Shown here: one piece after another, positions 39,506 through 64,000 of the stretch | How the letters are laid out: each line of letters starts with the position of its first letter | Position numbering within the stretch: position 1 is the first letter of the stretch | Source of the DNA: Pseudobdellovibrionaceae bacterium | GTDB taxonomy: Bacteria > Bdellovibrionota > Bdellovibrionia > Bdellovibrionales > UBA1609 | NCBI GenBank assembly: GCA_043757545.1 | Contig: JAYVPG010000050.1 | Location: forward strand, 3,785-67,784 | Direction of reading: 5' to 3' | DNA length: 64,000 bases | Program-made: the position numbers and the translations under genes | The notes under the pieces: model-generated | Database searches by the model: none | What the model was told of the DNA's origin: nothing | The model's input: the letters and a program-made list of their open reading frames with translations, nothing else

Positions 39506-39945
39506 TGCAATATCCAAATAACATAGTACGCGCACGAATGATGATCGTGTTGGTGGTCGACGACGACAAGATCGTGCGTGGAATCATCATTGAGCAACTG
39601 CGTGCAGTTGGCTTCGAAAAATTTATCGAGGCCGGGAATGGGACTGAAGCTCATAAGTTTATCCTGGATCCTTTACAACGCATTGATTTGATCATTTGCG
39701 ATTGGGAGATGCCTAAGACCGATGGACTTACATTTCTTCGCGCGGTTCGCGCCCATCGACATCGCAATGAGACACCTTTTATCATGGTCACTAGTCAGCA
39801 GTCGCAGGAGCGACTTAAGATTTCAGCCGCAAAGAAGCATGAGGTTGACGCTTATATCGTAAAACCCTTCCGGGCCGACGTTTTGCGCGCCAAGGTCTTC
39901 GAGGTCCTCTTCGGATCGGCTGAGAAGAAAACGATCGGTGCATGA
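39502..39945 (+). CDS. single-domain CheY-like response regulator
   Basis: VVDDD, DLIICDWEMPKTDG, YIVKPF. ATGA overlaps on both sides. Confidence 0.85.
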   Translation: MMQYPNNIVRARMMIVLVVDDDKIVRGIIIEQLRAVGFEKFIEAGNGTEAHKFILDPLQRIDLIICDWEMPKTDGLTFLRAVRAHRHRNETPFIMVTSQQSQERLKISAAKKHEVDAYIVKPFRADVLRAKVFEVLFGSAEKKTIGA

Positions 39946-41522
39946 TACGTCTGGTCTCGGCGCTTTTTTTGAGCATTTTTAGCTCGGGAGCCCTGGCTCT
40001 TGAGTCCGCTGAGACCTTCTCTTCACGCTCACACTTGGAAAGTGGAACGGCCGTTTGGAATCAAACGCTCGGCAAAATCCATCCGACTTTGCGAGTGATG
40101 AATTTCAAACCTGGATTTACCCCTCTTGATTTGTCAGTGGGCGATGGATCGGACGGTTCATTTGATCCCTCGACCTATGCGCAGTTCAGTCAGGCCGGGG
40201 ATTTAAGTGGAAATATCATTCGTCTGGACACGACTGTGCATCCGGTTTTGCATCTCACGCGGTTTGAGTTGGCCCAAGGTTGGTTTTTGGAACCTGTGGG
40301 CACTGCACCTCTGATCATTGAGAGTCTAACGGACGTCGATATTCAGGGCGAGATTTGGTGCAACGGCCACGATGGTGGCGCTTCGATCGGACCGACGCCC
40401 GGAGCCGGTGGACTGGGTCGGTGCGGCGGCAAAGCCGGGGGCGATGGCGCCGCTCCTGGATTAGGTGGAGCGAATGGAGTGGGTGTCACGGGCGCGGTAA
40501 CCGGTGGTGTGGGTGGAAACTTTGTTGGAGCTTCCTATGTTGGTGGAGGCGGTGGTGGTTCGTGGAGAGCTGCGAATCCTCCAACGAATGGACCGGGTGC
40601 AACTGGGGCGGGTGGATTCGCAGGGCTTTTCTCTGGCGATCCGGAGTTCTTGAATGTGCTCGGTTCTGGGGGCGGTGGCGGAGGTTCGGGCTCTGGTGAC
40701 GGAGTAACGGCTGGTGCTGGAGGCGGAGCGGGTGGAGGAGTCGTGGTGATCCGGGCTGTGGGCAACGTGAACATTGGAGCGTCGCCGGTTTCAGCATTCG
40801 GATTTATTTATGTGGGCGGCGGTCGCGGGGGCGATGCCGACAATCAGGCAGGTCCCGGTGGTGGCGGCGGCGGCGGTTCGGTGCAGATTTTTTCTGGCGG
40901 AACGGTCAATGTTTATAACAATGATCCCGGCGGCGCGAGTGTGGCGAGCGCTGGACTTGGTGGATCGAATGCGGTGTTTGTGGTTGGGGCCGTAGGCGGT
41001 GAGGGGCGCAGCTGGTTTTCTGCGGTGACCTACAATCTGGTTGGTTTCTACACGCCCAGTGAAGAGGCCCCGGTGGTACGTGGAAATATCGAGTACACCT
41101 CGGCTGCGCAATATGTGATTACGAAAATGGTCGATGTGGTTTACTCGTTAGTTGAAGTGCAAGATGTCGCCTTTTCTCCTGCGTCGAGTGATTTTTCTTT
41201 TGAAATTTCGGGTAGCAATGATGGCTTTGTATCCGACGATACCGGATGGACGACAAATATGGCGTTGGTGGCGCACAAACGGTATTTGAAAATGAAATTG
41301 AATGTGGCGACCACGAACGTGAACGCGCCGACGATGATCGATACGGCGACTCTTAACTACGAGCCGAGCAATTTGGATAGCTTTAAATTCCAAGCGGCAG
41401 GATGTGGAAGAATCGCCGATCCACAGACTCCAATGGGAAACCTATTCCTATTCTTATTTGCGCCCTTGTGTTTGTTGATCCTAAGATTTCGCGTGAATCT
41501 TCTTAAGCGATCTTTAAAATAA
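39942..41522 (+). CDS. secreted glycine-rich (beta-helix-like?) protein with a C-terminal Cys-TM-basic tail
   Basis: Signal peptide, about 230 aa of GGxGG-type runs interrupted by short beta-like segments (VVVIRAVGNVNIG, SVQIFSGGTVNVY), and a C-terminus AAGCGRIADP...LFLFLFAPLCLLILRFRVNLLKRSLK. Confidence 0.6.
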   Translation: MIRLVSALFLSIFSSGALALESAETFSSRSHLESGTAVWNQTLGKIHPTLRVMNFKPGFTPLDLSVGDGSDGSFDPSTYAQFSQAGDLSGNIIRLDTTVHPVLHLTRFELAQGWFLEPVGTAPLIIESLTDVDIQGEIWCNGHDGGASIGPTPGAGGLGRCGGKAGGDGAAPGLGGANGVGVTGAVTGGVGGNFVGASYVGGGGGGSWRAANPPTNGPGATGAGGFAGLFSGDPEFLNVLGSGGGGGGSGSGDGVTAGAGGGAGGGVVVIRAVGNVNIGASPVSAFGFIYVGGGRGGDADNQAGPGGGGGGGSVQIFSGGTVNVYNNDPGGASVASAGLGGSNAVFVVGAVGGEGRSWFSAVTYNLVGFYTPSEEAPVVRGNIEYTSAAQYVITKMVDVVYSLVEVQDVAFSPASSDFSFEISGSNDGFVSDDTGWTTNMALVAHKRYLKMKLNVATTNVNAPTMIDTATLNYEPSNLDSFKFQAAGCGRIADPQTPMGNLFLFLFAPLCLLILRFRVNLLKRSLK

Positions 41523-42326: not shown

Positions 42327-44579
42327 TTAAAACTCGAGGCCAAACGAAACTTGCCCGCTGACTGAATAGGTGTTGCCGCTCTTATGAAAAAGTGCGGCGG
42401 CGTCGAAACCCAATCCGATAACGAAAATCTCGCCTACCGTCCAACGCATACGCTGTTCGGTGGTGAGGCCGAAGTCGGAGCCGAATAGGGCCAAAAAGTC
42501 GCTTTGGTAAGTCGCTTTGTTCATAGGTTTTAGAAATTGACCGCAGGGTCCAACGGACCAGGTGTCGCGGGTTTGAATCGATTCAAAATCTTTACGTGTG
42601 AAGCGCACTGAGTGCCGACCCGCCAAACCCCAGGCGAACGGACTTGAGCTAACGTGAGAAACTCCGCGCGCCGAATAGTCGGACCAACTGAGATCTTTTT
42701 GAAACGGATAGTTTTCCTTTGGTCGTGGCTGATAGGTCATTTGCGAATATTGAACTTCGAAGTTAAGCATATGCTCGGGATCGGTCATATGATCCACTCG
42801 CACGGCGCCGGATTTAATATTTGTGCCGTGAAAATCAGCGTGCACCGATTCTGCGCCCACACTACGTATCGATTGATAGGCCGGTCGCCATTCGAAACGC
42901 TTGCGATTGTGCAGAGGCAGAATATACGGCGGCGGGGCGGGTGGAGTGAGTGCGGCGGCAGCCGGCGGTTCTTCGACCGCCACGGGAGCAGCAGGTGGTG
43001 GTTTTGACTCGGTCGCGACCGGGAGCGGAGCGACGACCTCTGGCGATTCGACTCGCATGACTTCGACGCCAACGGCGTTCGGGTCCGCCAAGTTGACTTC
43101 TTGTGGTTCACTGAAAAATCCTAAGCGGCCCTGTTTGGTTCCGGCTGCGACTCGCCAGAAATAGGATTTCAGCTGCACCTTTTTCCATAAAAAATCATTT
43201 TGCGAAACGGTCTGCGTGACTAGAGGCGAACGGAAATCTGCGGTTTCAGAAATTTCGATAACGTAGTGATCCGCCCGGTCCACGGTCTCCCAGCTGAACA
43301 ACGCTTGGAATTCACTCTCATCGGCTTGGGCCTCTGGCAAAATCAAATTTTGCAGCTCTCGCCATAAGCCCGCGCCGCGATTTTTGCTGGCTGGCTGGCG
43401 CAGGGTCGGAACTCTGAGTTTCGGTGCGGCGAGTGGCGCTTCGCGAATGTACAGTGGGTAGGAGTAGCGAGGGGGAATCACAAAGCCTTCCTTGTCGACG
43501 CCTTGAACACTCCATTCCAAATCGTCTTCTGCGCCAAATTTCGTCGAGAACGAATTTTCCTGGAGTGGTTGTTCTGAATTGAGCGAGCGGCCTTTCAGAA
43601 GAAATTTAAAGCTGGCAACCTCGGGAATTCGAGTCCATACAAAGGCCGTTGGCGTTTCGGTTTGGATGCGATTGCGCGGCAAAGGCATGAGCAGGTGAAT
43701 TGTAGGTGCCGGCCATACTTCGATATCTAGTGCCACGGAAGTCGCGTCACCTCGGCGCAGGAAAAGTCGATGATGCCCAAGCGGAAGTGCCAGGGAGTGT
43801 TCGGTTTCAAACGCAGTCAATGCGGTGGATTGCTCGGGTTGACCGAGCGTCTGGCGCAGAAGCTGGGTTGAGCCGGGACCTTGCCACTTAAGACGAACCA
43901 GCGCTTCGGTGCTGTGCGTGTAGATTCTTTTAGGTGGATTTTCACTCCAACGCAAAGATGCGTCGTCTAGAGTTTGCATTTTATTAAGATGTCCGTCTTG
44001 AATGCGCAAGACTTGCTGTTTGCTGACTTTCTCGACGCCGGCTCCCGAATTAAATCCCACTTCTCCGCTCTTGACGGAAAGCTCATAGCCATTTTCACCC
44101 ACTTGGCGAAAATCGATATCGCTGCCAGTCTTGATTTCCATCGACCAACCGTCGGAGTCGACAGTTGTCGCCGCAAACGGATTGCGCGCTTGAAAGCCAC
44201 CCCTGTGAAATTTTAAGCGAATCTCGCCATACTCTTTGTGATCTTGCGGCTCGATCGTCACCAATGTATTTTCAGAGAGTCGAACCTCGGTATCTTTGAA
44301 TAATTTAAGTGAGGCCGTGCTTTGTGCAAGAGTGAGTACCGAGTCAAAATAGTATAGCGTTTCGCTTGAGTTTGATTTTTCCCAGAGCAAGCTGTTGAGT
44401 CCACGGCGACGCAATTCATTTTCACTTTGCGCCACGTGACCGGCGACCGCGGTCGTGTTGGCGGAAGAGCGTGGACGAAATCCACCCCAAGTTAAGTGCA
44501 ACGCCAGTAAGGTCACCTCAACGGCAAGTAAGATGACTAGACTCGCGATAATTCTGCGATCGATCGCTTTGCGCTCCAT
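42327..44579 (-). CDS. large envelope protein, hypothetical (N-terminal TM anchor, FecR-like segment, Pro/Ala-rich linker, C-terminal beta-barrel-like region)
   Basis: TM segment IIASLVILLAVEVTLLAL, linker PLPVATESKPPPAAPVAVEEPPAAAALTPPAPPP, C-terminus ...VSFGLEF with terminal Phe. The domain calls are tentative. Confidence 0.55.
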   Translation of the reverse strand: MERKAIDRRIIASLVILLAVEVTLLALHLTWGGFRPRSSANTTAVAGHVAQSENELRRRGLNSLLWEKSNSSETLYYFDSVLTLAQSTASLKLFKDTEVRLSENTLVTIEPQDHKEYGEIRLKFHRGGFQARNPFAATTVDSDGWSMEIKTGSDIDFRQVGENGYELSVKSGEVGFNSGAGVEKVSKQQVLRIQDGHLNKMQTLDDASLRWSENPPKRIYTHSTEALVRLKWQGPGSTQLLRQTLGQPEQSTALTAFETEHSLALPLGHHRLFLRRGDATSVALDIEVWPAPTIHLLMPLPRNRIQTETPTAFVWTRIPEVASFKFLLKGRSLNSEQPLQENSFSTKFGAEDDLEWSVQGVDKEGFVIPPRYSYPLYIREAPLAAPKLRVPTLRQPASKNRGAGLWRELQNLILPEAQADESEFQALFSWETVDRADHYVIEISETADFRSPLVTQTVSQNDFLWKKVQLKSYFWRVAAGTKQGRLGFFSEPQEVNLADPNAVGVEVMRVESPEVVAPLPVATESKPPPAAPVAVEEPPAAAALTPPAPPPYILPLHNRKRFEWRPAYQSIRSVGAESVHADFHGTNIKSGAVRVDHMTDPEHMLNFEVQYSQMTYQPRPKENYPFQKDLSWSDYSARGVSHVSSSPFAWGLAGRHSVRFTRKDFESIQTRDTWSVGPCGQFLKPMNKATYQSDFLALFGSDFGLTTEQRMRWTVGEIFVIGLGFDAAALFHKSGNTYSVSGQVSFGLEF

Positions 44580-50753: not shown

Positions 50754-52085
50754 TTGATCGAGCGCGCGAAGAAAAGCGGAAGTTTTTGCATCTATCCATT
50801 TACCCACCTCGCGACCAAAACTGAGGGGACCTTTAAGCTTTGTTGTCGCAGTGAGCCGATTGCGCATGTGGACTCGAGCTCAGCGCTTGAGACTTGGAAT
50901 GGCGAGATTTACCGTCGCGTTCGCCGCCAGATGCTCAACGGGGAGCGTCCTCCGGAATGTGATGATTGTTGGCGTTTGGAGGACGTGGGCACTCGCTCAA
51001 TGCGTCAACGTGCCGGGAACCCGTCGTTTCGGGATAGTCGCTGGAATCGACACTCTCATGTGCTCCAGAGTTGCGCCGAGGATGGCACAATGTCGATCAC
51101 CCCCAAAACGCTCGAAATGAAAGTCAGCAATGTCTGCAATTTGAAATGTCGCATGTGTAGTCCGATTGATTCGACTTCGTGGGCGAGTGAATGGCCCGAG
51201 GTCGAAGATCTGCATAAGGTCCACAACACTTGGGCCTATGAAACCGCCCGCGAATACGGTCTTAGTCAAAAGCCAAAGCTTGCGGGTTTTGAAGACAACG
51301 CGAAATGGTGGTCTGAGTTTGACGAAATGATAGAACATTTGGAACTGGTGGAGTTTGCTGGCGGTGAGCCATTGATCGACCCCATTCATTACCGCATTCT
51401 GAAATTGATGGCGCGACGTGGCGGCCATATTCGACTCAAGTACAGCACCAATTTGACCAAACTCTCCTGTCAGGGAACGCAAGTCTTTGATCTTTGGAAG
51501 CAGTTTGCCGGCGTTTCGGTTTATGCAAGCGTCGACGGTGTAGGCGCGGTGTATGACTACATTCGGACGGGAACGACTTTTTCCAAAATTGAGCGGAACC
51601 TTAAACTTCTGCAGGCCGAGAAATCCATTCCGCTCGATGAGCTCGCCATCGCGTGTACGATTCAAGTTTACAATTGTTTTCAGTTGCCCGAGATTGCCAC
51701 TTATTTTCAAGCATTGGGCGTGAAGCTGCACACGCACCGGGTCACCTTTCCGACGTTTTTAAGTGCGCAGATTTTGCCCCTAGATATCAAGGCGCGTTTG
51801 ACGGCGGAGATCGCTCGCTACATGCAGCGTACACCCAACGGCAAATACGAAGAGCAGATGTTTGCTCCCATCAATAAGCATTTCGAGGATCACTTGAATT
51901 TCATGAATGGTCGCGATGAGTCGGCGCTGCTTCCGGTGTTTAAGGATTTTACGGATCGTACGGATCGTTTGCGGGGAACGGATGTGCGAACGCTACACCC
52001 TTGGCTCGCCGAAGTTATGGATCGTATTCCCGTTCTACCGCGACCTGCTCTGAGTGAGACTGTCACCTTCAACAGCTTGTCTTAA
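50754..52085 (+). CDS. radical SAM enzyme with an N-terminal twitch/SPASM-like motif (paralog 2 of 9)
   Basis: FCIYPFTHLATKTEGTFKLCC; CDDCWRLE; CNLKCRMC; FAGGEPL; SVDGVGAVYDYIR. There is no ATG before the first Cys. The TTG at 50754 has AGGAGG 4 nt upstream; the ORF opens at the TTG at 50736. Confidence 0.8.
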   Translation: MIERAKKSGSFCIYPFTHLATKTEGTFKLCCRSEPIAHVDSSSALETWNGEIYRRVRRQMLNGERPPECDDCWRLEDVGTRSMRQRAGNPSFRDSRWNRHSHVLQSCAEDGTMSITPKTLEMKVSNVCNLKCRMCSPIDSTSWASEWPEVEDLHKVHNTWAYETAREYGLSQKPKLAGFEDNAKWWSEFDEMIEHLELVEFAGGEPLIDPIHYRILKLMARRGGHIRLKYSTNLTKLSCQGTQVFDLWKQFAGVSVYASVDGVGAVYDYIRTGTTFSKIERNLKLLQAEKSIPLDELAIACTIQVYNCFQLPEIATYFQALGVKLHTHRVTFPTFLSAQILPLDIKARLTAEIARYMQRTPNGKYEEQMFAPINKHFEDHLNFMNGRDESALLPVFKDFTDRTDRLRGTDVRTLHPWLAEVMDRIPVLPRPALSETVTFNSLS

Positions 52086-53009
52086 GAATTCGGGAACTTT
52101 GCCCTTGCGGTGAAAATCGCGAATGGCTTTGGCTAGACCAATGCGGTTGACGACACCATCGCGGGTGAATGAGTTCCAGTTCTGATCACCGGTCCCAAGA
52201 TGCACCGAATCCGATGGTGTAAGACCCAAATGAGTGCAAACGGCCTCTTGAGCAGCGCGATAGGTTTCATAAATAAAATCTGGAGAATAGCGACGCATGA
52301 GAAATAGAGAAATCTGCACATTCAAATGTATTCCATGGCGCCACTCGTTTTGCAGGTGCAAGTGACCGAGTTGCACGCGGGAAAACGTGAGACCCGCCCG
52401 CCAATTGCCACAGCCAAGGCCTTTGGTTGTTGAAAAGGCCACTCCATGGATAGTGGGATGCGAGAGATCGATATGAATTTTCGCACAGGTTCCAAAAAAA
52501 GCAGCATCTACGAAAATGGGAATTTCAAGTGAGGCGCAGGTCTTCAGAAGCTCAGGCCATCGGGGGTGTAGACCACCGGTTCCTGAAAATGGGACCGACA
52601 CGATCACGGCGTCTCCGCGCACCAGGGGCTGGTCGTCGAGATACTGCGAATCACTCCAGATCGACTGAGAATCGCGATTGTAAGGATATTCTCCGCGCAA
52701 AAGGCGCAAGCGGCGCGCGGATTGCGCGATCCAGGCGTGCCATTCATCCAAAGCTTGGGTCACTCCCAGGCTTACATAGCGAAATGGAAACTCATTCAGA
52801 CCGAGAAAAGAGTTGAGCCGCGAAGACAGAATCCACTTTGGGTATTCAGTTGAAAAAGCTGAGGGGTCATTCAGCTCCGGAAATCCGTCCGCCAACAGAT
52901 GATTCAAGAAATTAGCCTCAAGGAGATCTTTACGAAATCCATCGTGATAAATGGAATTCGCAGACTTTAAAAGATAGTTCGCGTCGGCGTGCGAAAAAGC
53001 GGTCGCCAA
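52035..53009 (-). CDS. possible PLP-dependent (fold-type-I-like) enzyme; otherwise hypothetical
   Basis: Order of elements GVTQALD ... VSVPFSGTGG ... IFVDAAFFG ... FSTTKGLG (candidate Schiff-base Lys) resembles aminotransferase-superfamily spacing. The TTG start directly follows the upstream TAA. This is a weak call. Confidence 0.35.
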   Translation of the reverse strand: MATAFSHADANYLLKSANSIYHDGFRKDLLEANFLNHLLADGFPELNDPSAFSTEYPKWILSSRLNSFLGLNEFPFRYVSLGVTQALDEWHAWIAQSARRLRLLRGEYPYNRDSQSIWSDSQYLDDQPLVRGDAVIVSVPFSGTGGLHPRWPELLKTCASLEIPIFVDAAFFGTCAKIHIDLSHPTIHGVAFSTTKGLGCGNWRAGLTFSRVQLGHLHLQNEWRHGIHLNVQISLFLMRRYSPDFIYETYRAAQEAVCTHLGLTPSDSVHLGTGDQNWNSFTRDGVVNRIGLAKAIRDFHRKGKVPEFLRQAVEGDSLTQSRSR

Positions 53010-54236
53010 TTAATTCACCCGGGCCTTGGCGTGTTCCATTGCCTCGTGCATCGGGCCACGAAATGATTCGGGAATCAGAGACAGAAAGTTTTGTTCGCGA
53101 ATCGCGTCCATTTTCTCCGTGTAAGAGCAGAAATCGGTGAAGTCGGAGTCTGAGCCCGGGCTCATCATCCAATTTATAAACTGATCCAATTTGGGAGAAA
53201 ATAGCGGAGCGTACTTCTCTTTGATTCTCATCTTGATCGGTTGCGGCAGACACTGCACTGAGAGTTTGGGAGGAAATGAGAGATAGTTAAACGCGATGGA
53301 AAAGCCAAAAGAATCTCCCCACGACAAAAGCTGTTCCAACTCAAACGCGTTGTAGATCTGAATTGTGCAGATGCCCGTCATGCGCGCTTGCGGGAGTTCC
53401 TGTTTCAGGGCTCGCACTCGCGAATCTACAAAATTCCACTGCGCTGGAAAACGGATGTACTCGTTCACCGGTCCATAGCCATCGATACTGCAGTCGATGG
53501 TCACGTGCTTGAACTGACGGGCGCGATCCACAAAACGTTGATCAAATTTTGCTAGATTCGTGCTCCAGCGCACGCGCATATTTTTCGCGGCGCCCGAGGC
53601 AATGGCATAGTCCAAAATATCTAAATGTTCTGGGATTAGGGACGGTTCGCCGCCTAGAAAGTAGACTTCTTCGGCATATGGAATCAAGCGTTCAAGCTCC
53701 GCTTTAAATTTTCCGTCTTGCAGAAGGTTGCCGAAGCGCCGGTTAAACCCACGTGCGAATTCGGCCGTCACCGCGCCGGTCGCGACGGATTCTGTTAAAA
53801 TCGCGGAGCTGGTTTCATCATTGCACATTCGACATTTCAAATTGCATTGGGTGCCCAATTTTATGTCCCACGAGAGCGGGCGAAACGGCAGTTCTGCGGA
53901 CTCTTGTAGGCGTGCAAAAGTTTTCGCAAGATAACGGTTGCCGTCGTCAATGCGCTTGCTCTTTAGGCCGAGGTCCTCGAGCTTCCAGCACTGCTGGCAT
54001 TGAGGATCGCGGACTCCGTTCAACATATTGGCACGCAGGCTGTCCATATAGGGCGAGAAAAATGCATTTTCAAATGAATCGCCCTGATCCAGGCGATAGG
54101 GTTCTCCGTTCTCTTTGCGAATCGGAGTTTGGCTATGGCAGCAGGCGCTGATCTCGCCCGTGGTCATATTATTTATATGAACAAAGGGGAGTGTGCAAAA
54201 AACTTTAGAATTGGTTTTAAGGGGCGTGTCTGACAT
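53010..54236 (-). CDS. radical SAM enzyme with an N-terminal twitch/SPASM-like motif (paralog 3 of 9)
   Basis: FCTLPFVHINNMTTGEISACC; CQQCWKLE; CNLKCRMC; FLGGEPS; SIDGYGPVNEYIRFPAQW. Start is either the ATG at 54236 or the GTG at 54254. Confidence 0.85.
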   Translation of the reverse strand: MSDTPLKTNSKVFCTLPFVHINNMTTGEISACCHSQTPIRKENGEPYRLDQGDSFENAFFSPYMDSLRANMLNGVRDPQCQQCWKLEDLGLKSKRIDDGNRYLAKTFARLQESAELPFRPLSWDIKLGTQCNLKCRMCNDETSSAILTESVATGAVTAEFARGFNRRFGNLLQDGKFKAELERLIPYAEEVYFLGGEPSLIPEHLDILDYAIASGAAKNMRVRWSTNLAKFDQRFVDRARQFKHVTIDCSIDGYGPVNEYIRFPAQWNFVDSRVRALKQELPQARMTGICTIQIYNAFELEQLLSWGDSFGFSIAFNYLSFPPKLSVQCLPQPIKMRIKEKYAPLFSPKLDQFINWMMSPGSDSDFTDFCSYTEKMDAIREQNFLSLIPESFRGPMHEAMEHAKARVN

Positions 54237-54325
54237 AGACCGAAAAGTTAGCACTAGTTGAAGCCCATGGGGAATTCAAAATCACATTGACAGTCAGGTT
54301 GCCGCGGTGATCGACTTCTGCGGCT

Positions 54326-55396
54326 ATGAAGATCGAGTCTTATTCCGAATTTCAACCTCTAGAAGAGGTGATTGTGGGGCGCGCGCATCCGCCTTCCGCA
54401 TTTGCCAACTCGAGTGATCCCGAAACCATGGACAGCATCGGTCGCGTTTTAGGTGAAACGGAAGAGGATATTCAGGACTTAGTGCGTTTGCTGGAGCGCG
54501 AGGGCGTGAAAGTGCATCGCCCGCAAATTCGCTACACAGTGTCAAATGACGGCGAGTCCGAGCCGTACTCGTATCAAATGCAAAACATGACCTTTCGCTT
54601 CCCGAACCACCCTTTGATGCCACGGGACACCGCGTTTGTCTATGGCGACACGGTGGCGGAAACCTACACTCGTTCACAAAATCGTTTTTTAGAAAACTCT
54701 GGTTACTACGAATTGTTTAAAAGTGCCTGGGAGCAAGGCGCCCATTGGGTATCGCTGCCGCAGCCAACCCTTTACGATAAACGCAAATCCTATTTGGAAT
54801 ATGCTCCCGACACTCTGCTTTATCACGCGGCGAATATGATTAAATGCGGCTCGACCGTATTTCACACTCAACCGCAATCGGCAGAGTACCCAACGGGAAA
54901 AGGCACGACGGCCGGTTTGAACTGGTTCCGTCGACAATTTCCCAAAGTCAGTTTTGAGCAAGCCCCCTGTGGCGGGCATGCGGACGGAAAAATGGCGCTC
55001 TTAAAGCCGGGCTTGGTGATCTGTTGGAATCGCGAACATTTGCCCCCATCGTTGCGCGAATGGGATTGTATTTTGGTAGAGCCCAAAGAGCAGTTGCCAG
55101 AATCTTTCGCGAATATGCGCAAGGAACGTTTCTATAAAGATTTTGTGAAGCGTTGGCTGAGTGAGTGGATCGGGTATGTGGACGAAACCGTATTTGACGT
55201 GAATGTCTTTTCCGTGCGCGAAGATCTGGTGATTTGTACGGGCTATGACGCGGATATTTTTCGCCAGTTGGAAGCCCGTGGCGTGACCCCTATCCTGTGG
55301 AATTTTCGTCACCAATACTTCTGGGATGGAGGCATTCACTGCCTCACTTTGGACGTCAAACGTAGCGGCGGCTGCGAAGACTATTTTTCCCGATAG
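54326..55396 (+). CDS. amidinotransferase (glycine/inosamine amidinotransferase family, GATM/StrB1-like)
   Basis: The length, the N-terminal EVIVG segment, a mid-protein His (CGGHADGKMALLKPG) and the C-terminal GGIHCLTLDVKR with the active-site Cys match the guanidino-group-modifying fold. Confidence 0.8.
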   Translation: MKIESYSEFQPLEEVIVGRAHPPSAFANSSDPETMDSIGRVLGETEEDIQDLVRLLEREGVKVHRPQIRYTVSNDGESEPYSYQMQNMTFRFPNHPLMPRDTAFVYGDTVAETYTRSQNRFLENSGYYELFKSAWEQGAHWVSLPQPTLYDKRKSYLEYAPDTLLYHAANMIKCGSTVFHTQPQSAEYPTGKGTTAGLNWFRRQFPKVSFEQAPCGGHADGKMALLKPGLVICWNREHLPPSLREWDCILVEPKEQLPESFANMRKERFYKDFVKRWLSEWIGYVDETVFDVNVFSVREDLVICTGYDADIFRQLEARGVTPILWNFRHQYFWDGGIHCLTLDVKRSGGCEDYFSR

Positions 55397-55411: not shown

Positions 55412-56596
55412 TTAGTCGTAGAGCTCAGACGCTAAACGGGAAGTTCTGGCCGACTTTCCCATCGTGACTATATCTGGACCATAGAGAACGATTTGACGAT
55501 CGTTCTGCGCACTCGCTGCGTGTAGGGACGAGAGAAATCTTCGTCCCTGCCCCTCAATCCAATCCAAATCCCAATTGAACTGGGCGAGCGCAGGTGTAAA
55601 TCCGAAACAGTTGCTATACCAAACTGCAAACTGCTGACCGGGAGTTTCTGTTAAGGACTTCGCAAGGCCTTGCGGATTTCTCACGACGTCCACGCAGTTG
55701 TAAAATTGTTTTAATTTCTGCGCCGTTCGGAAGGCGGTGAGGAATTCGGATTCACCTCCCCATTGCTCCAACTCCTCAAGCCAGCGAGTATTTAATTGCG
55801 CAGGCTCGAGCGGGGGAACGACTTCGGTCAATGGATCGGCATGAGTGGAGATAAACTGTGCCAACATTGCAGGAAAGTCGCGTCCGTCCCACTTCTCAAA
55901 CATATACTTTTTAAATAGAAGCGATTGTGGGCAAAGGTCAAAATAATGAATCTGAGTTTGCGTGTGGCTTCCGTGCGCCGCCAAAAGAAATAAATCCTTA
56001 AAACCGGAGGCCAAAGTGAAAAGTGCATCTAGAGGGCGACGCTTCTTCTTCCCCTCAATCGCGCGATAATTTTCGGTATTGAACACAAACATTTCATGGC
56101 TATAACCCCGGCATTGATAATGCAAATATTCCAGCGCTGAACCCGACGGCCACTCAGCGCTCTGAATCCCCTTTAGATCCACGGCCAGCTGTTCAGGTGA
56201 CGCTTCGACGTTCAAGTCGGTCATGGCGAGCGTGACGCTGGGTGCGGTTTTGGAGGGGTGAAGATTTTGATCGACTTCCCTGTCACAGCGATAGGCGATC
56301 AGGCCAGGTGCCAGCTCTAGATAAGCCGTCTGACTTCCCTGTTCACATAAAATATTTTCGACATCTCTAAAAAAATCTGCGCTCTTGATCAATTGTCCTG
56401 GTTGAAGAGTCACGCACCACTGAGCTTGAGTTCGGCGCGCAGCTTCGAGCAGGCGAGTCAGCGAATGGTCATAGGCAAATTCAACCGGTCCGGAACTATT
56501 GAGTTTCAAAGTGTGAAGAGTGAGGTTGCGCGCGATTCTTACGAGGTCGGTCTCAACCTGCGAAGATAGACGATTCCAAATCGCGTAAAATGTCAT
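55412..56596 (-). CDS. protein of unknown function, a free-standing paralog of the C-terminal domain of 48441..50663
   Basis: See the motif pairs listed for 48441..50663. The ATG directly follows the TAG of the upstream rSAM gene (TAGATG). Confidence 0.7.
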   Translation of the reverse strand: MTFYAIWNRLSSQVETDLVRIARNLTLHTLKLNSSGPVEFAYDHSLTRLLEAARRTQAQWCVTLQPGQLIKSADFFRDVENILCEQGSQTAYLELAPGLIAYRCDREVDQNLHPSKTAPSVTLAMTDLNVEASPEQLAVDLKGIQSAEWPSGSALEYLHYQCRGYSHEMFVFNTENYRAIEGKKKRRPLDALFTLASGFKDLFLLAAHGSHTQTQIHYFDLCPQSLLFKKYMFEKWDGRDFPAMLAQFISTHADPLTEVVPPLEPAQLNTRWLEELEQWGGESEFLTAFRTAQKLKQFYNCVDVVRNPQGLAKSLTETPGQQFAVWYSNCFGFTPALAQFNWDLDWIEGQGRRFLSSLHAASAQNDRQIVLYGPDIVTMGKSARTSRLASELYD

Positions 56597-57871
56597 CTAA
56601 AGTGCCGCGCCCAATTGGCTGTGAATCGCCTGCGCCAGTTCCGGCGCCAAGGCTTCTAGATTTTCGCCGCGCGACTGATTGAGGATTTGAGTTTTATTCG
56701 CGAACTCAGCAAACGACTGTGCAAAAGTGTCCTGCCCAAACATGTACCGACTGAGATCGCGCACGCGCTCCCACGCTGAGTCTTGCTGATGAAAGGATTC
56801 GCGAGGATGCTCGATGAGCCACTGATCGATGCGCTGACTTGCGAGCTGTTTGAGCTCAAGAGGGAGCGCACGAATATTCAACCAATGCGGATGGTTTAAA
56901 ATATTCAAGTAAGGAATGGTGCGGAAATTTCGGCGTTGTAAAACAAAATCTAAAATTTCACTTAAATTTAAAATATTGTAAGCCTGGACAGTCACATGAA
57001 CATTGGCGTCCAGCCCAGGCATGCGGTCGGCCATATCGTCGATCAGATCCATATTGCGTTCGACATCGCTCCATCGCGTGGGATGGCGGATGTATTCATT
57101 CAGCGTGCCCACGCCATCCATTGAACAATTGAGTTTTACCTTTTTAAAATTCGACCAATGGCGAATCACTGAGGCGGGTAAAACAGTCAAGTTGGTATTG
57201 TATTTTAAAGTGAGTTCAGGCGCGCGATTGTTTTCCACCAAATACTCTAGAATTCGCACATGCGCTTTGCTCAGCATCGGCTCGCCGCCGGTAAAATAAA
57301 TTTTGTCGATGGTCTCTAAATGAGGTTTCAAGTTTTCGAAAAATTCTTCGCCCTCAAACCAATCCAGCTTCGCCAATCGGGCGCGCTGTTTTTCATCCAT
57401 GGGCGATTCGATCAGATCCCAATCCTCCAACCATTTTTGACTCGCATAGGGGTTGCACATGCGGCATTTCAGGTTGCAGAGATTACCTAAGCGCAGGTCC
57501 AAATAGCGCACCTCGACGGGAGTTCCCCCGTCTTCGGAAGTGATTTCTTTTAGAGTCGTAACGTTCGTAGAATAAAACTCATTCCAGGCGTGACGGGGAG
57601 AGCGAATGCCAGAGTCTTCCTCTTTAAAACATCGCGCACAAGCCGCCGGACGCTCGCCCGTGAGCATCTGTTGACGAATCTGCCGTTGTGACGACGCATT
57701 CCATGCGGCCTCGATCGAACCTGGCTTAGCCAGCGAAAACGAGGCCTCACCTTCGCGGATTAGGTTGAGGCCCGGAATGCTGTTACAGCAAAGGCGAATC
57801 TGGCCCGAGGAATTTGTCGCCAAATGCTTCCAAGCTAAGGCACAGTGGGTATCGGTTGGCGAATGGCTCAT
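56597..57871 (-). CDS. radical SAM enzyme with an N-terminal twitch/SPASM-like motif (paralog 4 of 9)
   Basis: HCALAWKHLATNSSGQIRLCC; CARCFKEE; CNLKCRMC; FTGGEPM; SMDGVGTLNEYIRHPTRW. Start is either the ATG at 57871 or the GTG at 57907. Confidence 0.85.
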   Translation of the reverse strand: MSHSPTDTHCALAWKHLATNSSGQIRLCCNSIPGLNLIREGEASFSLAKPGSIEAAWNASSQRQIRQQMLTGERPAACARCFKEEDSGIRSPRHAWNEFYSTNVTTLKEITSEDGGTPVEVRYLDLRLGNLCNLKCRMCNPYASQKWLEDWDLIESPMDEKQRARLAKLDWFEGEEFFENLKPHLETIDKIYFTGGEPMLSKAHVRILEYLVENNRAPELTLKYNTNLTVLPASVIRHWSNFKKVKLNCSMDGVGTLNEYIRHPTRWSDVERNMDLIDDMADRMPGLDANVHVTVQAYNILNLSEILDFVLQRRNFRTIPYLNILNHPHWLNIRALPLELKQLASQRIDQWLIEHPRESFHQQDSAWERVRDLSRYMFGQDTFAQSFAEFANKTQILNQSRGENLEALAPELAQAIHSQLGAAL

Positions 57872-57975
57872 ACTATTCGAATAGGGCGGGAAGCGAATAA
57901 AGTCCACTCCTTAAAATTTTCAGATTTTATCCAATAGGGAGTGGTGGTAGTTTTTATTTCTACGGGGACGGCCAG

Positions 57976-63648: not shown

Positions 63649-64000
63649 ATGGCGATCTGTTCAGCACCATGGCATTCACTCCTGATACGTTTTAACGGCG
63701 ACGTCGTGCCGGATTCTCAATTTCAAGGTCGTTATGGAAATATTCGTGAAAGCGATCTCGCTTATCTCTGGCAGTCTCCAGAGGCTCGGCTCGCGAGAAG
63801 TGAATTTGCGGCGGAAAAGTGGCCAGTCGCCTGCGCGCAGTGTGATCTAAAAGAGAGGAGCATTGGCCACTCTCGGCGGCTATTTTTTAACGACATTGTG
63901 GACCCGATTTTGTTGGAGACCGATCACTCTGCAGATGGTCCGCCAGACATCTACTATCTTGAAATCAATTCGTCGAATCTGTGCAATTTAAAATGTGTCA
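63649..64000 (+). CDS. radical SAM enzyme of the same family (paralog 9 of 9), 5' part only; runs off the right edge
   Basis: Absent from the ORF track because there is no stop in the window. The ATG at 63649 follows an in-frame TAG at 63637. Translation: MAICSAPWHSLLIRFNGDVVPDSQFQGRYGNI...CAQCDLKE...EINSSNLCNLKCV. The usual CC pair is replaced by PD. Confidence 0.75.
   Translation, partial: MAICSAPWHSLLIRFNGDVVPDSQFQGRYGNIRESDLAYLWQSPEARLARSEFAAEKWPVACAQCDLKERSIGHSRRLFFNDIVDPILLETDHSADGPPDIYYLEINSSNLCNLKCV

Follow-up and report, generated by a model that had tools for sequence, protein, structure and literature searches.

In the biosynthesis of streptidine, a dehydrogenase and an aminotransferase act before the amidinotransferase StrB1, and in that of 2-deoxystreptamine the twitch radical S-adenosylmethionine (SAM) enzyme BtrN is followed by an aminotransferase. 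The catalytic residues of human arginine:glycine amidinotransferase (AGAT) are Asp254, His303 and Cys407 (PMC3684758). A phage counterpart was reported by Timms et al. (2010, PMC2853527): the Campylobacter phages CP220 and CPt10 carry a module of five radical SAM genes and a putative glycine amidinotransferase, which they termed interchangeable and of unknown function. In pelagimyophages and cyanomyophages, a host recognition cluster with glycosyltransferases and radical SAM cassettes has been described (Zaragoza-Solas et al., 2020, PMC7029224). Here we analyse an amidinotransferase (AT)-family gene in a 64,000-nucleotide stretch of a Pseudobdellovibrionaceae bacterium (contig JAYVPG010000050.1, positions 3,785 to 67,784), referred to below as the window. 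The gene (54326-55396, plus strand) is an ATG-to-stop open reading frame (ORF) for a protein of 356 aa (P0001), and the strand opposite to it is riddled with stops. Our proposal, in which belief and doubt are about evenly balanced, is that it encodes a catalytically competent, divergent amidinotransferase-type enzyme which performs one step of a conserved trio of radical SAM, pyridoxal phosphate (PLP) and AT enzymes.

The AT protein is a real, divergent member of the amidinotransferase branch of the pentein superfamily. A phmmer search against PDB sequences matches it to StrB1 over the full length (E 5.9e-22), to SxtG (8.8e-19), to AGAT (~1e-16) and to HsvA (5e-16). A profile of 22 members of its clade gives E-values of 1.8e-43 for StrB1, 4.1e-42 for HsvA, 1.1e-40 for SxtG and 1e-35 for AGAT. 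Chains of arginine deiminase (ADI) and dimethylarginine dimethylaminohydrolase (DDAH) are absent from the PDB sequence matches of the AT protein at E ≤ 1. The AlphaFold2 (AF2) model, computed from a 92-sequence alignment, has a mean predicted local distance difference test (pLDDT) score of 94.4. It was matched by Foldseek to amidinotransferases at E ~1e-27 versus ~3e-11 for ADI and DDAH. In VIA-align, HsvA (5wpi), SxtG (6u1r), AGAT (1jdw) and StrB1 (1bwd) superimpose with Z 35-36 and a root-mean-square deviation of 2.4-2.5 Å over 305-307 residues, and the hydrolases reach Z 26 (ADI), Z 23 (DDAH and ArgZ) or Z 20 (AstB and PAD4).

Curated family models do not recover this relationship. The Pfam model PF02274, which a preceding interpretation made from the nucleotide sequence without database searches (the sequence-only reading) had named for this family, returned nothing for the AT protein at E ≤ 1. 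The only Pfam match was a chance one to Ago_N_1 (E 0.017), NCBIfam gave none, and among the PHROGs only the unannotated family phrog_25854 was matched. One clade member, P0057, has a precomputed PF02274 match. No fused longer forms were found among proteins of 624-2000 aa, which is weak evidence, and in eight longer relatives (421-572 aa) Pfam shows no additional named domain.

With StrB1, AGAT, SxtG and HsvA the AT protein shares the whole-length fold and the motifs ETEE, PRD, H-x-D and G-x-HC-x-T-x-D, at an identity of 22-28%. The alignment with StrB1 pairs D108 with D101, D179 with H167, H227 with H218, D229 with D220 and C332 with C339. The nucleophile Cys339 (GGIHCLT) is paired with Cys332 of StrB1 and Cys407 of AGAT, which lie in a Gly-rich loop (GGGFHC); in place of this loop, the C-terminal motif of the AT protein reads FRHQYFWDGGIHC. 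The catalytic His218 and the guanidino-binding Asp220 (GGHADG) align with THVDS of StrB1 and correspond to His303 and Asp305 of AGAT. The second guanidino-binding residue, Asp101, lies in the PRD motif (MPRDT; counterparts AGAT Asp170 and StrB1 Asp108) and is invariant even across the 92-sequence alignment. The family signature GGIHCLTLDVKR, with which the ORF had been said to end, is present at residues 335-346; it lies near the C-terminus rather than at it, with ten further residues before the stop.

The triad Asp of the solved enzymes (AGAT Asp254, StrB1 Asp179) is His167 in the AT protein (LYHAAN versus VFDAAN), and profile alignments with all four solved amidinotransferases place their FDAA(N/D) opposite YHAAN of the clade. 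Of the Asp/His/Cys triad anticipated in the sequence-only reading, Cys339 and His218 are thus kept and the Asp is replaced, as judged from sequence alignments. That reading had regarded an absent triad as contrary evidence, and formally the triad is incomplete; close members of the clade, however, carry Asp or Glu at this position in the same gene arrangement. A tree of 252 relatives, built with FastTree from a MAFFT --auto alignment, places the window protein in a clade of 128 tips (support 0.99), with His at position 167 in 119, Asp or Glu in eight and Arg in one. The close Asp and Glu forms are otherwise locally alike (LYDAAN and LYEAAN compared to LYHAAN). For P0069, which has Glu, and for P0114, which has Asp, the AT gene is followed by a radical SAM gene and then by a gene for a protein of ~300 aa, which at the P0114 locus was confirmed as the PLP partner discussed below (31% identity, E 1e-42). 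Because the Asp and Glu forms share their gene arrangement with the His forms, we read His167 as a variant triad residue and not as the mark of a dead enzyme. The simplest reading of the alignments is that His167 is a working replacement of the triad Asp which would orient or tune His218.

A catalytically dead or purely structural relative, which would have arisen through loss of the triad Asp, is very improbable. Asp254 of AGAT is listed as catalytic (PMC3684758) and has no equivalent here, which is what would suggest such a loss. However, Asp101, His218, Asp220 and Cys339 are invariant, as is His167, in 22 diverse clade members, and these four are 90-100% conserved in the 92-sequence alignment, which includes distant relatives (26-78% identity to the query). 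Conservation extends to the substitute at position 167 (His in 119/128), which, save for one Arg, is exchanged only with Asp or Glu. Comparison with the 78%-identical orthologue on locus L001 gave a nonsynonymous distance (dN) of 0.17 with a saturated synonymous distance (dS), which indicates purifying selection on the AT gene. The pseudoenzyme reading was rejected on the basis of this residue conservation.

The 22 members share further clade-specific invariant residues (W281, G283, E287, D291, N293, R328, H329, W333 and D334). A clade-specific segment of ~35 residues (query ~250-288) does not align to the solved amidinotransferases; the unaligned region around 250-290 includes the invariant motif WIGYVDETVFD. 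Canonical amidinotransferases with FDAAN and GGGFHC occur only among the most distant AT matches. Between the clade and these canonical enzymes stands a large and diverse set of proteins (P0135-P0268) with a C-terminal RYFWDGG(I/L)HC, in which a wide range of residues, among them N, S, A and P, occupies the triad column, where the alignment is unreliable. An argument for a donor other than arginine from the missing NPxR motif (AGAT Arg322, StrB1 Arg246) was dropped, as HsvA also lacks the motif in the alignment.

The same active site would serve a hydrolase of the deiminase or dihydrolase kind, in which water would resolve the thiouronium on Cys339, so that a guanidino or amidino group would be removed or converted and not installed. 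The Cys, the His and the two Asp are common to pentein transferases and hydrolases, clear structural relatives are found among the latter (ADI with Z 26; DDAH, ArgZ and the nnhA entries 9b01/9azg with Z 23), and the altered triad residue together with the clade-specific segment implies that the surroundings of the active site have changed. We nevertheless consider hydrolysis unlikely. The transferases are far closer to the AT protein (E 1e-43, Z ~35) than the structures of the ADI/DDAH type (12-15% identity, Z 23-26), which bears out the earlier placement in the amidinotransferase family and outside the ADI and DDAH branches. In addition, genes for urease, carbamoyl handling or ammonia handling were not seen in the window, and a PLP partner is what a pathway that supplies an amine acceptor would classically contain.

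The clade is large, uncharacterised, missed by curated family models, marked by a variant triad and steadily associated with radical SAM genes. A database of 90%-identity clusters contains more than 1,000 homologues at 40-78% identity, nearly all of them unnamed and metagenomic, and an exhaustive search of 50%-identity representatives returned 717 matches, 55 of them below 1e-30. Close matches in species-representative genomes come from metagenome-assembled genomes of Bdellovibrionales and Bdellovibrionia. The nearest clusters in the ESM Atlas are 96-100% viral, mostly Uroviricota, and three of the clade loci that we fetched (L006, L022 and L023) are on phage-like contigs.

The gene neighbourhood was compared across 14 sampled clade loci (AT members 41-78% identical), the ORFs of which were classified by BLAST against the genes of the window. 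Radical SAM genes with an N-terminal twitch domain lie within ~2.5 kb of the AT gene in 13 loci. A homologue of the PLP-like gene at 52035-53009 lies within ~2.3 kb in 10 of the 14 (24-67% identity). Two arrangements recur: either the PLP gene on the minus strand faces the AT gene on the plus strand, which is followed by a radical SAM gene on the plus strand, or the AT, radical SAM and PLP genes are all co-directional. The locus without a radical SAM neighbour is L008 (Gemmatimonadaceae contig JADKJT010000014.1). Its AT gene, which has no PLP neighbour either, is flanked by IS21-type and rve transposase genes, with glycosyltransferase and PMT-family genes nearby, and could be a piece of the module that moved there recently.

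The radical SAM gene that immediately follows the AT gene constitutes an orthologue group of its own, since its products are 31-43% identical to the copy of locus L002 versus 22-30% to the paralogues of the window. It often overlaps the AT gene, and was located (coordinates within each locus) at 11046-12302 in L002, 11037-12284 in L003, 11034-12290 in L004, 10950-12311 in L009, 10629-11858 in L011, 11052-12374 in L021 and 11083-12429 in L023. In this window and in its closest relative, L001, the orthologue is absent from that position. Among the window genes, 56597-57907 is the best match (26-30% identity) for five of nine AT-adjacent radical SAM proteins from other loci.

In the window, the AT gene is a single-gene arm with its own direction of transcription between two minus-strand neighbours. 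Upstream, a divergent intergenic region of 71 bp (54255-54325), in which a clear Shine-Dalgarno motif was not seen on reading the sequence, separates it from an N-terminal-twitch radical SAM paralogue (53010-54254, minus strand; NF033640 E 2.7e-97, also matching Pfam Radical_SAM), which is co-directional with the PLP-like gene. Downstream, a gap of 15 bp leads to a convergent gene for a 394-aa protein without a named family (55412-56596, minus strand), and this is followed by a second N-terminal-twitch paralogue (56597-57907, minus strand; NF033640 E 1.5e-113). The description of the AT gene as embedded among radical SAM genes is therefore accurate, both paralogues being members of NF033640. 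The 394-aa protein matched nothing in Pfam, NCBIfam or PHROGs; its weak relatives recur in related loci, where they often adjoin or are fused to AspH-type hydroxylases.

The PLP-like partner (P0269, ~300-324 aa; 52035-53009, minus strand) has no Pfam match at E ≤ 0.001 and none in NCBIfam or PHROGs, and neither the protein nor its family profile gave a meaningful sequence match in the PDB. Homologues of ~300 aa number at least 222, and five of these have a precomputed match to PF00155. Its AF2 model (pLDDT 94.1) superimposes on enzymes of the class-I aminotransferase fold with Z 20-21 over ~290-300 residues (Foldseek, VIA-align). D168 (VDAAF), S193, K196 (STTK) and R204 are invariant in the family; by motif position, D168 would be the Asp that binds the pyridine, K196 the Schiff-base Lys and R204 the Arg that binds the phosphate. 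The neighbour had already been called PLP-like, and a 324-aa ORF with a fold-type-I PLP fold and invariant Lys and Asp agrees with this. Since homologues keep the N-terminal 20-35 residues, which the database gene call of 290 aa omits, the long form is favoured, and its start is probably the TTG that immediately follows the stop codon of the radical SAM gene upstream. A complex prediction for the AT protein and the PLP partner scored 0.00 and gave no verdict either way.

The conserved association of the PLP gene with the AT gene in other genomes strengthens the idea, raised in the sequence-only reading, of an amine that is subsequently converted to a guanidine. The AT enzyme probably adds a guanidino group to some molecule, and the best reading of the gene content is that the PLP enzyme would make an amine and the AT enzyme would guanidinylate it. 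In such a pathway, the N-terminal-twitch radical SAM enzyme would oxidise or activate the substrate at one position, which the small PLP enzyme of fold type I would turn into an amine, and the AT enzyme would convert this amine to a guanidine. In the last step, a donor, in the simplest case L-arginine, would be attacked at its guanidino carbon by Cys339, and the amidino group of the resulting S-amidino (thiouronium) enzyme would then pass to the amine acceptor. His218 would shuttle protons, with His167 and not an Asp to orient it.

This order of reactions resembles that of the aminoglycoside pathways, as a set of twitch-domain radical SAM, PLP and amidinotransferase enzymes fits oxidation followed by transamination and then guanidinylation. 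The enzymes themselves differ, however: no orthology was found beyond the superfamily level, the twitch domain is N-terminal in the window proteins, and a cyclitol synthase, a kinase and a glycosyltransferase were not identified in the window.

The module of phage CP220 is similar in that its AT-family gene, too, is surrounded by several radical SAM genes and by glycosyltransferase-like genes. The CP220 protein gp086 is only 26% identical to the window protein, retains the canonical Asp (VDAAQ) and belongs to another clade. Its radical SAM neighbours have no BLAST match to the N-terminal-twitch paralogues of the window, two of them weakly matching the conventional radical SAM genes, and a PLP partner was not found at the CP220 AT locus. 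A link to the 7-deazaguanine DNA modification of CP220 was rejected because other genes explain that pathway and the CP220 AT is of a different clade. Also of another clade is ORF309 of Synechococcus phage S-SCSM2R, an AT-family protein (23% identical) encoded among radical SAM and glycosyltransferase-like genes.

The AT gene lies in an island rich in radical SAM genes, which extends from 44648 to the window edge at 64000 and beyond it to the end of the contig. Pfam and NCBIfam scans identified at least 11 radical SAM genes within 44.6-64 kb, most of which belong to NF033640 ("twitch domain-containing radical SAM protein"), a family that has the SPASM/twitch module at the N-terminus. Past the window edge, locus L024 (contig positions 67000-72565) carries two more up to the contig end: one is a complete N-terminal-twitch radical SAM gene (L024 434-1633) and the other is radical SAM-like with a sub-threshold Pfam match (L024 1630-2994). 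Two unnamed ORFs are also found in L024. Of the 20 island ORFs scanned, seven lack a family match or reach only a sub-threshold one, namely four ORFs of the window and three of L024. Upstream of ~39.9 kb, the window contains ordinary housekeeping genes. The island is accessory, as a search with P0001 found AT matches in only two of 17 genomes of the same genus, one of them with only 34% identity and an internal stop.

Two further genes lie near the left end of the island. Just before the island, 39942-41522 (plus strand) encodes a secreted, very Gly-rich protein of 526 aa without a Pfam match. Its C-terminus, with Cys-Gly, a hydrophobic stretch and a basic tail, looks like a sorting signal of a kind known from Myxococcota and Bdellovibrionota. 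At the left edge, 42327-44579 (minus strand) encodes a 750-aa protein without a family match, in which an N-terminal membrane anchor is followed by a Pro/Ala-rich linker and, at the C-terminus, by a region resembling an outer-membrane beta-barrel.

As to the substrate, a sugar, a cyclitol or a glycan decoration of the cell or virion surface is the most likely class. This is based on the glycosyltransferases and sugar enzymes in the phage versions of the module and on the KdoO/LpxO-like hydroxylases that are present in the island of this window. Genes for UDP-glucose dehydrogenase, DegT, GFO/IDH/MocA and RpiB proteins occur in loci L022, L001 and L006, and the AT-family genes of phages CP220 and S-SCSM2R are flanked by glycosyltransferase-like genes. 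Further recurrent components of the clade loci are AspH-type hydroxylases, an unnamed domain of ~400 aa and a KdoO-like protein. The phage host recognition cluster offers a further parallel, as a hypervariable island with radical SAM cassettes, the AT clade having mostly viral members; an amidinotransferase is not mentioned in its description (Zaragoza-Solas et al., 2020, PMC7029224). Unlike that cluster, the island of this window is chromosomal in a bacterium, and tail-fibre genes were not seen among the scanned ORFs.

A peptide or protein substrate (a RiPP-like precursor or a virion or surface protein) could mean, for example, that homoarginine or arginine is made from Lys or Orn, or that Arg is de-amidinated. 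Radical SAM enzymes of the twitch/SPASM type and AspH-type hydroxylases typically modify peptides or proteins, phage islands of this kind lie near tail-fibre genes (Zaragoza-Solas et al., 2020, PMC7029224), and a protein annotated as amidinotransferase has been detected in a cyanophage virion proteome (PMC12801897). We still regard such a substrate as distinctly improbable, because all solved relatives act on small molecules, the paired PLP enzyme fits poorly, and a precursor-peptide gene, a leader-binding domain, a protease or an exporter was not recognised in the window.

Several observations weigh against the proposed amine-then-guanidine pathway on a sugar-like substrate. The canonical triad Asp is missing in the AT protein, and the PLP gene was not found near the AT gene in four of the 14 loci (L006, L008, L011 and L023). 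The structural matches of P0269 are tied between aminotransferases, ACC synthase, C-S lyases and the O2-dependent arginine oxidases MppP, RohP and Plu4, so that amine formation is only one possible chemistry. None of the 20 island ORFs scanned matches a Pfam glycosyltransferase or sugar-nucleotide domain, and the sugar idea therefore leans on other loci. The module also includes AspH-type hydroxylases, the best-known substrates of which are proteins and lipid A. Finally, we found no paper that characterises an activity, donor, acceptor or product for the clade.

A broader proposal is offered tentatively, and with more doubt than belief. The His-triad AT, the adjacent N-terminal-twitch radical SAM enzyme and the short PLP enzyme may be the core of an undescribed pathway common to abundant aquatic phages and predatory Bdellovibrio-like bacteria. 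This pathway would guanidinylate a glycan or other decoration of the surface or virion, and the change from Asp to His would adapt the enzyme to a donor or acceptor that differs from those of all characterised amidinotransferases.

The clade comprises more than 1,000 clusters at 90% identity, consists mainly of viral members in the ESM Atlas and is not detected by curated models. Its AT is the most chemically readable enzyme of the N-terminal-twitch radical SAM islands that occur in marine and freshwater phages and in Bdellovibrio-like bacteria. The protein thus provides an assayable handle, dependent on arginine and on the Cys, on the product of these widespread islands, and the natural interchange of His, Asp and Glu is a ready-made test of the role of the third triad residue in amidinotransferase catalysis.

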